The notes under the pieces were generated by a model. The model was not told the DNA's origin, did not search any database, and worked only from the letters and a program-made list of their open reading frames with translations. DNA of 59,808 nucleotides from an uncultured Candidatus Saccharibacteria bacterium (GTDB taxonomy: Bacteria; Patescibacteriota; Minisyncoccia; Phycocordibacterales; PALSA-1337). Made by a program: the position numbers and the translations under genes. The stretch spans positions 50,025 through 109,832 of the forward strand of contig CAZNYP010000001.1 of the NCBI GenBank assembly GCA_964577365.1, given 5' to 3'. This document shows, piece after piece, positions 25,400 through 46,572 of the stretch; positions within the stretch are counted from its first letter, which is position 1; each line of letters begins with the position of its first letter.

Positions 25400-27148
25400 T
25401 TACAAAGATTTAAGGTCGCGTATGTCTTTCTCTATTTCAAGTAGACCTGCTCTAAAGAAATCAGGCTTTGTGGTATCGATTCCAATACTTTTAAAAATAT
25501 TGATCGGAGTATCTGATCCACCTGCTCTGAGAAATTTTTCTACTTGTTTTATATAACCTGGATCTTTTTCCAAGTTTCTGAGCATGACCTTGCTCGTGAG
25601 CAACCCGTAGGCATATGTATACACATAAAAGTAATACCGTAGATGCGGCCATGACACAAACAAATATCCATCATCCTCGCGGAATTTCATCTTTGGACCG
25701 AGGTACGCGGACATATTTTTGTTGTGTATTCGTGCTATATTTTCTTTTGAAACAAACCCCTCTGTCCGAACAGCCTGGTGTAGCTCTGATTCAAAGTTGT
25801 AGCATGCCACTTGTCGAAATATTGTAGAGATATTGCGTTGTAATCGGTCAAATAGCGCAATCTTTCGTTCTTTTGCAGTGAGTTGTTTTAGAACATGCTC
25901 GAAGACAACATTTTCAAAAAATGTACTCGCTGTCTCTGCGGTGGTAAGTGAATAATCGAAGTTCAAAACTGATTGTGTTCTTGAGAAATGTGAGTGAAAT
26001 GCATGCCCCATCTCATGTCCAAATGTCTGCAGTGAAGTAAAATTATTGACATGATTGAGTAGGACATATGTCTCTGAACCATACATACTAGAGCAATACG
26101 CACCGCCACGCTTCCCTTTTCGTGGATATACATCCACCTGTCCTCTTTTTACAAATGAATCAACGAGATCGACATATACCTGGCCAAGAGGCCTAAAGGC
26201 ATCTTTCAAAATATCAACCGATTCTTCGAAAGAAAAACTTTTGTTCAGCGTGCCCACACTCGCTTGGCGATCCTCGTATCCCAATTCTGCTAGACCGAGT
26301 TCTTTTGCTAACATGCCATAGTATGTGTGTGATATATCGAAATGATCTGTGACTGTTTTGATGAGGTTGTCGACAGCTTTTCGTGAATCCTGATTCTCGA
26401 GCAACATAGCATCTGATGGGTGTTTTAGATTGCGCAATTCGTCTTCTATCTTTCTAAATGCAAAAATTGCATTTAGCTCTGACTCGGCAAAAGAAGATAT
26501 GTTTTTTAGCGTACCTGTGAGTGCTTCTTGCATTTTGCTACGTGATTCTTTGTTTGGTTCTTTCAGTAGACTGTTTGTGATCTCCTCGATGGGTACGGCC
26601 CGACCGTTGTAGGTGACCATCTGCTGACTCAATAATTTAGACTGTCCAGATGTCCATGCATCGTACGCTACACTACGTGTGAGTGACAAGACTTTTTCGA
26701 TCTCCTCTGAGAGTTGGAATTCAGCATTTTTGAATATTTCAGACAAAAAATGTTTATATGGTTTTAATGATGGATGTGACAATAATACTTTTTGTTGTTT
26801 TTTTGAAATAGCGCCGAGAGCAAGGGTAAAGAATTTGATTTTGTTTAGTGCTTTTCGAACTCGTTCCTGCACCTTATTCATTTTTGCTTGCACCGATCCA
26901 TCTTCGTCGCGACCGATATGTATCGTATATCTCAAAAAACAAATAGGTTTTTCTGCTGATCCATCGCGGTTTAGGGTCTCAAAATCAACAAGCGCTTTGA
27001 GAACATTTGAGACAGATTTAGAAAAATCAACCTTGCTGTATGTGCGAGAAAAAGCGTCACACATCTTTTCAGTGCGCTTTACATCTTTTTCGATCTGGGG
27101 GTCATCAATACTCTTGTATAAAAGGGTCAAATCCCATTCGGTTTTCAT
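25400..27148 (-). CDS. pepF: oligoendopeptidase F (M3B family)
   Basis: HEMGHAFH zinc motif in a 582-aa M3-type frame. Confidence 0.9.
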   Translation of the reverse strand: MKTEWDLTLLYKSIDDPQIEKDVKRTEKMCDAFSRTYSKVDFSKSVSNVLKALVDFETLNRDGSAEKPICFLRYTIHIGRDEDGSVQAKMNKVQERVRKALNKIKFFTLALGAISKKQQKVLLSHPSLKPYKHFLSEIFKNAEFQLSEEIEKVLSLTRSVAYDAWTSGQSKLLSQQMVTYNGRAVPIEEITNSLLKEPNKESRSKMQEALTGTLKNISSFAESELNAIFAFRKIEDELRNLKHPSDAMLLENQDSRKAVDNLIKTVTDHFDISHTYYGMLAKELGLAELGYEDRQASVGTLNKSFSFEESVDILKDAFRPLGQVYVDLVDSFVKRGQVDVYPRKGKRGGAYCSSMYGSETYVLLNHVNNFTSLQTFGHEMGHAFHSHFSRTQSVLNFDYSLTTAETASTFFENVVFEHVLKQLTAKERKIALFDRLQRNISTIFRQVACYNFESELHQAVRTEGFVSKENIARIHNKNMSAYLGPKMKFREDDGYLFVSWPHLRYYFYVYTYAYGLLTSKVMLRNLEKDPGYIKQVEKFLRAGGSDTPINIFKSIGIDTTKPDFFRAGLLEIEKDIRDLKSL

Positions 27149-27972
27149 AGCGTATCGATTTCTTTTAGTACGTGAGCGATGTCTTCGGTCGACATGCCCT
27201 GTTCTTTTAATAAATGTTGGTTGTCTTTGATATCCTCACACAAAATGATTCCCTTCGCAAGCAAATGCTTTTTCTGAGTGGCACTGAGGCTCGTGAGTGC
27301 GGTGAATGGGTGAAGCCCTGATTTTTCGATCATATCCTGGAGATTGTTCTGTGCAGGATAGTTCCATCCAACGAGACGTAGGCCTTTGCATTCTGCATAG
27401 TGGATGGCCTGATCAGTGAACTTTGTGTTGGTGACGAGCCAACTATCGGTGATCTTTCGTTTCTTTCCACCATAGTCATACATGTTTTCTTTGAGATCAT
27501 CAAAACGAGCTTTTATATACAGTGCTACTTTTATATCGGATTTGAAACCAAATTCGTTGTGGAATTTTGCTTCGATCATGACGAGTTCATCACCCTTCCA
27601 CGCGATCACATCCATCTCGTGAGGGACACAACCACCATAGACGACTTGGTCAGTGAGTGTCTCGTAGCCCTGAGTTCTCAAAATGGCAGCAATAAATTTT
27701 TCAAATGGAAAACCGTTCGGACCGAGCTCGGAGAGGGCGCGGCGGAGTGAATATTTTGACGCTACCTTGTTTTTTGATTCACGGAGATGTGAAAAAGCGA
27801 GGTGATATATCTGACCCGTCGTCATCCCATCGTGTATTTCTTTTTTTATCTTTTCAGTGATCTTTGCGATGACTGCAGGCTCGGTACCGACGTGCTCGAG
27901 GGATTCGACTAGTTTTGATTCATTAAAGGGTTCGAGCGTCCCGTCAGCTTTCTTTATGTATATGGTAGACAT
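27145..27972 (-). CDS. ATP-cone domain fused to a PD-(D/E)xK (Mrr-like) nuclease-fold domain
   Basis: The N-terminus MSTIYIKKADGTLEPFNESKLVESL is ATP-cone-like. The centre ...HEMDVIAWKGDELVMIEAKFH... looks like a restriction-endonuclease core. TGcTATAAT lies 6 nt upstream of ATG 27972. Confidence 0.72.
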   Translation of the reverse strand: MSTIYIKKADGTLEPFNESKLVESLEHVGTEPAVIAKITEKIKKEIHDGMTTGQIYHLAFSHLRESKNKVASKYSLRRALSELGPNGFPFEKFIAAILRTQGYETLTDQVVYGGCVPHEMDVIAWKGDELVMIEAKFHNEFGFKSDIKVALYIKARFDDLKENMYDYGGKKRKITDSWLVTNTKFTDQAIHYAECKGLRLVGWNYPAQNNLQDMIEKSGLHPFTALTSLSATQKKHLLAKGIILCEDIKDNQHLLKEQGMSTEDIAHVLKEIDTL

Positions 27973-27996
27973 GCGACCATTATAGCAAAAGCAAAA

Positions 27997-28018
27997 GGTC
28001 ACCGCAGGGTGACCTTTT
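27997..28018. terminator. perfect 7-bp hairpin terminator (ggtcacc-gcag-ggtgacc) with flanking A and T runs
   Basis: Seen directly. It lies downstream of the G+C-rich unit and upstream of the ATP-cone gene promoter. Confidence 0.7.
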
Positions 28019-28316
28019 CCGAATGGTTGTGTCGATCAGGCGACGGCCCGACCGAACATAAAGGTCTTCCGAGGATAGACCTTGTTGTACACGGTGATAC
28101 CGTGTGACCGGGGAAACACGAGCTCCTTTCTACTGAGGAGCATCCGACGCAGGCGCCGGAGAATCCCACCATGCCGGTGATTCCTTCGGCGGTACTCGAC
28201 GATCTGATAAACCAGGTCTCGATTCTCGAAGAACGGACGTCTTGGGCGCATTGCGCCGCCAGTTGGGAACGGCTCATATTCAAAAATACTCTATCTCTAC
28301 ACTACGATCTTGTCAA
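28019..28316 (-). other. G+C-rich promoter-to-terminator unit (~290 nt); coding frame ambiguous (71-aa ORF 28036-28251 or 92-aa ORF from ATG 28277), possibly a structured ncRNA
   Basis: TTGACA (28311-28316)-N17-TAGAGT (28288-28293). Both open minus-strand frames are compositionally odd, one Arg-rich and one Ser/Cys-rich. At least five local hairpins are present. Confidence 0.4.
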
Positions 28317-29364
28317 TCACCGCCCCTCCCACACATCTATCTCCATCATAAAACACAATAGACTGTCCCGGTGCGACGGTTTGGTTTTCAGAAAAAGTGA
28401 CCCTGTTCCCTTTTAACTCACACGAGACAAGTGGCTGACGATACCGCACACGCGCCATATAGGTACCATCCTTTTTTACATTTGAATCAGCGATGACGAT
28501 CTCCTTTCCATTTGCTTTTTGTTCTTCGAACGAGACAACGATGTCATTTCCCTTTTTTTCTTTTATAAAATATGGAGGATCATTTGGAGTTTTCTTTGTC
28601 ACCGTAAATCCATGTCGCTGCCCGATCGTGAGATATTCGATGCCGTCATGCGTACCGATCACTTCATCATCGCGTAGTACATTTCCAGGCGTAGGAGTAA
28701 TATAGTGTGAAAGAAAATCCTTTATATCGATTTTGCCAATGAAACATAGGCCCTGACTATCTTTTTTCTCGGCCACATAAAGCTTTGCCTTGCGAGCGAT
28801 CTCACGCACCTCTGATTTTAGAAGGTGGCCAATAGGAAACAGTATTTTAGAAAAATCGGAAATAGTCCAGAGGAAATATGTCTGGTCTTTGTTGTGATCT
28901 TTTGCCTTCCACATGTGTCCATCCTTGCTCTGTGCATAGTGTCCAGTCGCGACAAAGTCAGCACCGTGTTCGAGTGCCCATGTGTAAAATCCTCCGTACT
29001 TTACGTATTTGTTGCACATGACATCAGGGTTTGGAGTGCGACCCTTTTTGTATTCTGCGATCATGTAGTCAACGACCTCTTGTTTGTATTCTTTTTCGAG
29101 GTCGAGGGTGATAAAAGGGATGCCGAGCTGTGCAGCTACGCGCATCGCATCGAGACGATCCTCCTTCCAGTTGCATACGATCCAGTCGGGCTGCCACACT
29201 TTTATAAATACACCCGTCACGTCGTACCCGGCTTTTTTGAGCAGATATGCAGAGACAGAGCTGTCCACTCCGCCTGACATCCCCACATATACTTTACCCT
29301 CTGAGGTATTTTGAAATATTGACTTTATGTTCATCAAATGTCTTAGCGTAGTAGAATATACCAT
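28297..29364 (-). CDS. mnmA: tRNA-specific 2-thiouridylase
   Basis: VYVGMSGGVDSSVSAYLL PP-loop, ...CNKYVKYG..., and the catalytic Cys context GLCFIG. The start may be ATG 29334. Confidence 0.93.
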   Translation of the reverse strand: MVYSTTLRHLMNIKSIFQNTSEGKVYVGMSGGVDSSVSAYLLKKAGYDVTGVFIKVWQPDWIVCNWKEDRLDAMRVAAQLGIPFITLDLEKEYKQEVVDYMIAEYKKGRTPNPDVMCNKYVKYGGFYTWALEHGADFVATGHYAQSKDGHMWKAKDHNKDQTYFLWTISDFSKILFPIGHLLKSEVREIARKAKLYVAEKKDSQGLCFIGKIDIKDFLSHYITPTPGNVLRDDEVIGTHDGIEYLTIGQRHGFTVTKKTPNDPPYFIKEKKGNDIVVSFEEQKANGKEIVIADSNVKKDGTYMARVRYRQPLVSCELKGNRVTFSENQTVAPGQSIVFYDGDRCVGGAVIDKIVV

Positions 29365-46499: not shown

Positions 46500-46572
46500 T
46501 GGACCTGAGGAGAGTCGAACTCCTGACCTTCCGCTTGCAAAGCGGCTGCTCTACCAACTGAGCTACAGGCCC
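46500..46572 (-). tRNA. tRNA-Ala (anticodon UGC), no encoded CCA
   Basis: Hand-folded cloverleaf: GGGCCTG acceptor stem with a G3:U70 pair, GCTC/GAGC D-stem, TTTGCAA anticodon loop, AGGAG-TTCGACT-CTCCT T-arm, and discriminator A. Confidence 0.93.

Follow-up and report, generated by a model that had tools for sequence, protein, structure and literature searches.

On the minus strand of the window (the whole stretch of 59,808 nucleotides that was analysed here), mnmA and the gene of an ATP-cone protein are separated by a G+C-rich, hairpin-dense segment. A preliminary description, made from the letters of the sequence, presented this segment as a promoter-to-terminator unit and as a candidate structured non-coding RNA. 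The locus raises the question whether the segment is an RNA gene, a small-protein gene or a regulatory leader, or whether it is inserted DNA that became attached to the end of mnmA.

An extra segment at the junction of mnmA and the ATP-cone gene

The host genome (G000) comprises 626,580 bases in 13 contigs and has a G+C content of 45.5%; the public names of its nearest ATP-cone proteins point to Parcubacteria/Patescibacteria. The main features of the locus are the following:

28297..29364, minus strand: mnmA (Pfam tRNA_Me_trans, 1e-70)
28297..28299, minus strand: mnmA stop codon TAG; the last three codons before it (I-V-V) already lie within the extra DNA relative to the same-genus genomes
27985..28308, minus strand: whole extra segment of 324 nt, bounded by GACAAG in mnmA and by the TATAAT box of the ATP-cone gene
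27979..27987, minus strand: TGCTATAAT, the extended -10 box of the ATP-cone gene, whose ATG (27972) follows after 6 nt
27145..27972, minus strand: ATP-cone and Mrr_cat gene, followed by pepF

In two genomes of the same genus (G001 and G002), whose ATP-cone protein is 80-81% identical to that of the window, 4 nt are found where the window has 324 nt, and the TGTTATAAT box of the ATP-cone gene contains the mnmA stop codon TAA, with no spacer between the genes. Since mnmA abuts the ATP-cone gene in both, about 320 nt are extra in the window, which retains GACAAG on one flank and TGCTATAAT, 6 nt and the ATG on the other. At 28 other loci of the family, the spacer measures 0-41 nt in 16 cases and 72-801 nt in 12. 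The cargo was inspected in eight of the 12 loci with a longer spacer:

L004: UDG-like gene
L031: likely tRNA gene on the opposite strand, judged by eye
L050: perfect palindrome of about 100 nt
L051: 113-nt spacer with a short hairpin
L036, L042, L047 and L048: orphan ORFs of 120-235 aa across these loci

The cargo is unrelated between family members and the junction is thus an insertion hot spot. By blastn, no second copy of the insert was found in its own genome, so that it is single copy there, and no DNA match was obtained in 40 relatives, phages or plasmids. The insert resembles MITE- and REP-like elements in being short, hairpin-rich and intergenic, and the same site carries the palindrome in L050. 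However, a repeat of this kind was rejected, as the insert occurs once, has no terminal inverted repeats that span it and shows no target-site duplication. A direct repeat (D1) between the 3' end of mnmA and 28214-28193, with 16 of 22 positions identical, was also discarded, being close to chance by estimate and giving nothing in a genome-wide blastn search. Two small observations concern the same region: the hexamer CGGTGA, counted together with its complement TCACCG, is found four times within 330 nt (27993-28323), against about 0.16 expected by our own estimate, and 8 nt at the 3' end of mnmA (28315-28322) are perfectly complementary to 28175-28182.

The spacer in the closest strains

Closer relatives are known only as proteins in a public collection, in which 14 proteins make up the 90% cluster of the ATP-cone protein; among metagenome contigs, relatives of this protein reach at most 59% identity in a scan that may omit records very near the window's genome. 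The closest strain is represented by P0012 (356 aa), a fused gene call whose ATP-cone part is 99% identical to that of the window, with an mnmA on the same contig that is 95% identical. The 82-residue N-terminal extension of P0012 is a read-through of that strain's own spacer, seen as a protein call and not as DNA. It starts at an ATG homologous to the start of the 71-aa frame described below, has 8 of its first 11 residues (33 nt) in common with that frame, and ends with a T-run and W-Y-N (TGGTAYAAY) ahead of the true start. The 55 residues in the middle matched the insert in no frame by tblastn, and a frameshift-tolerant alignment scored 27, where shuffles averaged 25.9 (P = 0.37). Two parts of the insert can be told apart in this way:

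28219..28251, minus strand: 5' block common to the closest strain, in which 8 of 11 codons correspond to the start of the P0012 extension; it contains the 3' arm and loop of the hairpin at 28245-28257 and the ATG of the 71-aa frame
28022..28218, minus strand: strain-specific, hairpin-rich body with no colinear counterpart in the P0012 strain

As only the first 33 nt and the 3' end are alike in the P0012 strain, the hairpin-rich body is not conserved. The flanks are so similar between the two strains that point mutation cannot explain the difference, and the body has been replaced or rearranged. When the shared 5' block was searched for with a degenerate 33-nt pattern, 25 matches were obtained in genome contigs and three in viral contigs; they were taken as chance, because none came from relatives and none extended past the pattern.

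Three further relatives, P0014 (299 aa) and P0002 and P0004 (297 aa each), have short extensions in which G/R-rich residues are followed by F-F-I-W-Y-T. As far as translations can tell, such residues could be encoded by different G+C hairpins together with a T-run and a TGGTATACN box. In all four near relatives, a T-run plus TGGTAYAAY or TGGTAYACN can be read from the translations just before the ATG, and the codons ahead of it could form G+C-rich inverted repeats unlike those of the window, according to a test that is too permissive to discriminate. The mnmA tails of the near relatives (IVV, IAG, IVG or VS) are variable as well, which means that the left junction also varies. The translated spacer of P0012 is rich in Ala, Gly, Pro and Arg, and a high G+C content may be kept across alleles of the spacer. 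Judged by these translated spacers, the hairpin-rich body is private to the strain or species of the window. These four gene calls of the ATP-cone protein in the public collection carry spurious N-terminal extensions of 21-82 residues that read spacer, terminator and -10 box.

Promoter-like site and terminator

The unit was proposed to run from a promoter to a perfect terminator:

28288..28316, minus strand: sigma-70-like site TTGACA-17-TAGAGT, with TTGACA at 28316-28311 and TAGAGT at 28293-28288
27985..28018, minus strand: predicted intrinsic terminator with an 11-bp stem, a CUGC loop and a U-rich tail

The promoter-like site agrees with the consensus at 10 of 12 positions and is the sole such site in 2.5 kb, but this consensus is that of E. 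coli and not that of the host. Among 304 well-bounded genes of the host genome, 149 have a -10 box (TATAAT, at least 5/6 matches) 3-39 nt before the ATG, most often at a spacing of 6 nt (55 genes). Only seven of these 149 also have a -35 box with at least 5/6 matches, 52 have a TG extension, and a Shine-Dalgarno-like motif precedes only 11 of the 304 genes. Leaderless expression is the norm in this genome. The -10 box of the insert, TAGAGT, matches at 4/6 positions, and the -35 box TTGACA sits in conserved I-D-K codons of mnmA, one synonymous change away from the TCGACA of relatives. Because -35 boxes are so rare in the host and TTGACA is accounted for by these mnmA codons, an E. coli-style promoter of the insert is doubtful: the sequence is there as described, but it does not fit the promoter style of the host.

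The terminator bears out the description. Its arms (28018-28008 and 28003-27993) form a stem with five G-C pairs and a 4-nt loop, followed by the tail GCUUUUGCUA, that is, by the G+C-rich stem-loop and U-run from which intrinsic terminators are recognised in sequence. An A-tract and a U-tract flank the stem, so that it could act in both directions. Downstream of it, the extended -10 box of the ATP-cone gene has the modal leaderless spacing of the genome, and G001 and G002 retain the box. At the position of the terminator, the near relatives have the T-run plus W-Y-(N/T), and a terminator directly before a leaderless ATP-cone promoter appears to be kept across the clade, with the relatives read from translations and not from DNA. 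Of the whole stretch, only the terminator looks selected, as we infer from this pattern.

The reading we favour, with about even confidence, is that the segment is a lineage-specific, fast-turnover, non-coding insert of about 320 nt that is transcribed as the 3' tail of mnmA and whose terminator insulates the ATP-cone promoter. The insert sits at a recurrent insertion site of this Parcubacteria family. Transcription of mnmA would continue through it as a 3' tail, and transcripts would end at the strong intrinsic terminator, at 27993. The terminator would in turn protect the promoter of the ATP-cone gene and pepF, which is leaderless and of the extended -10 type, from read-through, and both genes would be expressed from their own promoter. 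The body (28218-28022) would be recently acquired DNA with no conserved function of its own, and may be the degenerate end of an earlier cassette.

Base composition, folding and RNA families

The stretch is as G+C-rich as had been stated: its G+C content is 0.544-0.569, according to where it is cut, whereas the genome averages 0.455 (sd 0.044). This places it in the top 0.8-2.5% of 300-nt genome windows. It is also hairpin-dense, since every helix listed in the preliminary description is present and one more was found:

28245-28257: hairpin
28161-28183: hairpin, in the body
28122-28141: hairpin, in the body
28089-28105: hairpin, in the body
28061-28083: hairpin, in the body, whose arms repeat parts of the terminator arms
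28055-28032: additional helix of 10 bp including two G.U pairs, not listed before

The minus strand folds at -118 kcal/mol (z = -4.0), which none of 100 shuffles equalled; z is -2.8 without the terminator and -3.2 for the body alone (28218-28022). After regression on G+C content, the residual of the minimum free energy is among the best 0.5-1.1% of 1711 folded genome windows. The plus strand, however, folds on a par with the minus strand (z = -4.3), because most helices are perfect palindromes; the hairpin at 28055-28032 fits the minus strand only, because of its two G.U pairs. Among 35 gaps of similar size in the same genome, which a crude gene finder had left uncovered, the stretch ranks 12th by z-score. 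The excess structure is real but not extreme. It nevertheless counts against our reading of the stretch as an ordinary insert that z lies between -2.8 and -4.0, in the top ~1% of the genome, and that the G+C content is 10 points above the genome when other gaps are mostly A+T-richer. The GC-IGR approach searches for structured RNAs by a G+C-rich intergenic signature of this kind (PMC6429828).

The Rfam search that had been recommended was run, and nothing in the stretch matched. Over the whole window, Rfam 15 at gathering thresholds returned one tRNA (46500-46572) and nothing else. At E<=10, the best matches within 27800-28500 were terminator look-alikes and RT-5, the latter with 18.6 bits against a cut-off of 45.7, and no T-box, riboswitch or leader family matched in the stretch. 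It had been remarked that the segment does not resemble RNase P RNA, tmRNA, SRP RNA or 6S RNA, which agrees with these results. Elsewhere in the host genome, RNase P RNA is found at C4:23974-24266 (137 bits) and tmRNA at C6:46743-47105 (109 bits). A weak 6S RNA-like match at C6:39900-40032 (22.7 bits, below the 46.4-bit cut-off) coincides with a structured gap (z = -4.0). For SRP RNA, RF00169 and RF01854 gave nothing in G000, and RF00169 none in 25 genomes of the order; the Ffh M domain (PF02978) was absent from 25 genomes representing 10 families of the order, while control genomes do match. The loss of ffh and ffs in Parcubacteria has already been published (PMC4508563). An identity of the insert with SRP RNA was rejected because the lineage lacks Ffh and ffs, and a fuzzy search for the SRP helix-8 core gave no SRP-like hairpin.

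A strain-specific structured sRNA, transcribed from the site at 28316-28288 as its own promoter or processed from the mnmA 3' UTR and acting in trans or as a protein-binding scaffold, is a tentative alternative that we consider rather unlikely. A promoter-like site and a strong terminator about 290 nt apart would suit it, as would the z of -4.0 with local helices that persist in the centroid structure, a G+C content in the top 1-2.5% of genome windows and frames that look non-coding. The 5' block is common to the nearest strain, the high G+C content seems to be common to the other allele, and one helix contains two G.U pairs. The seed regions of sRNAs can be conserved. Against this, the closest strain does not preserve the body, and both genomes of the same genus lack the whole unit; moreover, Rfam gives no match, folding is just as strong on the plus strand, the promoter departs from the native style and the z-score is middling among the host's own non-coding gaps. 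A conserved structured RNA is unsupported, since the body is missing in G001 and G002 and unrecognisable in the closest strain, the flanking proteins of which are 95-99% identical, and there is no evidence for a conserved RNA gene in the stretch. It is also conceivable, with a small probability, that the locus is a modular RNA cassette consisting of a conserved 5' end (28296-28219), a structured body that is swapped between strains and the terminator, which would imply that structured sRNAs specific to each strain are exchanged at one fixed position like accessory genes.

Coding potential

The three open frames of the preliminary description are present:

28036..28251, minus strand: 71-aa Arg-rich frame (about 22% Arg by our count)
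27999..28277, minus strand: 92-aa (92/94 aa) Ser/Cys-rich frame, with its stop at 28001-27999 inside the terminator stem
28171..28416, plus strand: antisense frame, 81 aa from its first ATG

In dinucleotide shuffles of the stretch, the longest frame reached at least 98 codons in 20% and the second longest at least 84 codons in 9%, and the open frames are not beyond chance for such a base composition. The G+C content by codon position is most coding-like in the 71-aa frame (0.60/0.43/0.68), with a permutation P of 0.01 for a frame that was chosen post hoc; nothing else suggests that some of the insert may formerly have encoded protein. The 92-aa frame (0.48/0.63/0.62) looks off-frame.

Searches for relatives returned nothing for the frames of the insert. 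The 84-aa stop-to-stop frame had no match among 1.84 billion representative proteins (phmmer), and a word-based search found no word-sharing protein of similar length for the 84-aa and 100-aa minus-strand frames. The ORFs of the insert are absent from a collection of 15 billion proteins in which the neighbouring ATP-cone and mnmA proteins are present, and Pfam, PHROGs, plasmid tblastn and the ESM Atlas gave nothing for them. A six-frame search with the 100-aa frame in 300 genomes of the order gave noise only; its top loci were rejected as relatives, since they belong to no Rfam family and do not resemble the insert at the DNA level. No loci related to the 100-aa frame turned up among metagenome, genome or viral contigs, in scans that may omit records very near the window's genome. 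Protein-language-model recognition scores were 1347 for the 71-aa frame and 1434 for a 63-aa plus-strand antisense frame (not the 92-aa frame), on a scale on which 91% of real families reach 2300. Neither homologues nor a frame of above-chance length were found, and the frames do not start in the native context. Very probably the stretch is non-coding, given the chance-level frames, the lack of protein relatives and the poor context for translation starts, and the earlier impression that none of the frames looks like a normal protein agrees with this.

We therefore regard as improbable that the segment is an orphan small-protein cassette, which would express either the near-leaderless 92-aa frame or the 71-aa Arg-rich frame as a basic protein. 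The host is largely leaderless, -10-to-ATG spacings of 7-10 nt occur in it, and the 92-aa frame begins 10 nt after TAGAGT and runs from promoter to terminator; this box, however, has only 4/6 matches. For the 71-aa frame, the coding-like phase is joined by an AlphaFold model with three helices, but the pLDDT of this model is only 59, and the ATG lies within the GGCGC/GCGCC hairpin, with neither a Shine-Dalgarno motif nor a leaderless promoter or -10 box. Orphan ORFs at the junction of other family members would also fit a protein cassette. Against it stand the absence of any Pfam or PHROG family, the scores well under 2300 and the P0012 allele, in which the same frame encodes an unrelated sequence past residue 11.

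Attenuation and assembly

With a decidedly low probability, the stretch might be a cis-acting leader or attenuator of the ATP-cone gene and pepF, in which 28067-28061 would pair with 28017-28011 as antiterminator. Translation of the Arg-rich frame, with its stop at 28036, might set the choice between the structures. The order of promoter, structured leader, terminator and then, 20 nt on (27992-27973), the gene is what such a reading would predict. Perfect 6-7-nt repeats of the terminator arms (D4, D6, I6 and I11) allow an alternative 7-bp pairing, and the forced antiterminator fold has -37.5 kcal/mol against -46.2 kcal/mol for the terminator form, that is, it is 8.7 kcal/mol less stable. However, the ATP-cone gene has its own leaderless promoter between terminator and ATG and no Shine-Dalgarno motif that would let a read-through message be translated. 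Close relatives have either no such leader or a different one, and no T-box, riboswitch or leader family matched. Attenuators of the trp and his type have a leader-peptide frame of 14-30 codons and precede genes of amino-acid biosynthesis. The insert is like them in that pairings of the 1:2, 2:3 and 3:4 type are possible and that a frame ends just before the terminator; it is unlike them in its frame of 71 codons, atypical for a leader peptide, in downstream genes that are non-biosynthetic and have their own promoter, and in an arrangement that is not conserved.

An assembly artefact, by which foreign reads were joined into the contig, would explain the foreign composition, the single copy and the lack of relatives, but it is very improbable because both flanks are colinear with relatives to the base and an independent assembly (P0012/P0139, Logan) shows this 5' block in its spacer, together with an mnmA tail of the same type.

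Relation to known systems

What stands of the structured non-coding RNA that had been proposed is that the stretch is very probably non-coding, folds better than chance and is Rfam-negative; an RNA gene running from promoter to terminator and a conserved RNA are not supported. Intrinsic (Rho-independent) terminators, structured 3' UTRs and sRNAs derived from 3' UTRs are systems to which our preferred reading, an insert attached to mnmA as a 3' tail, can be compared. Like a structured 3' UTR, the insert directly follows a stop codon and closes with a G+C stem and U-run, and it would be co-transcribed with mnmA. In contrast to a terminator or simple 3' UTR, the 270 nt upstream of the terminator far exceed what termination needs. 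We know of no processing site or independent transcript for the insert.

With its G+C-rich long intergenic region, helices and terminator and with no known family, the insert is like the unclassified or low-ranking candidates of GC-IGR studies (PMC6429828, PMC8632094, PMC11109978). These pipelines promote a motif only when it has several representatives and a covarying consensus; unlike the promoted motifs, the insert is in effect one representative, since the closest strain lacks the body. In this scheme it would count as 'unnamed' or 'low-ranking'; in the study concerned, about one quarter of such G+C-rich regions stay unclassified.

If our preferred reading is true, the segment is an ordinary variable insert, the terminator of which decouples genes that are fused head-to-tail in relatives. 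The locus records the leaderless promoter grammar of the lineage and an insertion hot spot. If it were instead an sRNA, it would be among the first candidate strain-specific sRNAs in bacteria of the candidate phyla radiation. The locus can also serve as a calibration case, in that being G+C-rich and hairpin-dense is alone no proof of an RNA gene in a small genome with 45.5% G+C. Six other G+C-rich gaps of 230-380 nt (G+C 0.52-0.60, all Rfam-negative) were observed in the host genome, at C10:811-1113, C10:7340-7566, C10:14584-14884, C2:43159-43457, C6:56287-56592 and C7:14125-14503. The five that were folded (all but C7:14125-14503) have z-scores from -5.4 to +0.6. The six gaps have no similarity to each other or to the insert, and they could be further orphan inserts or unknown RNAs.
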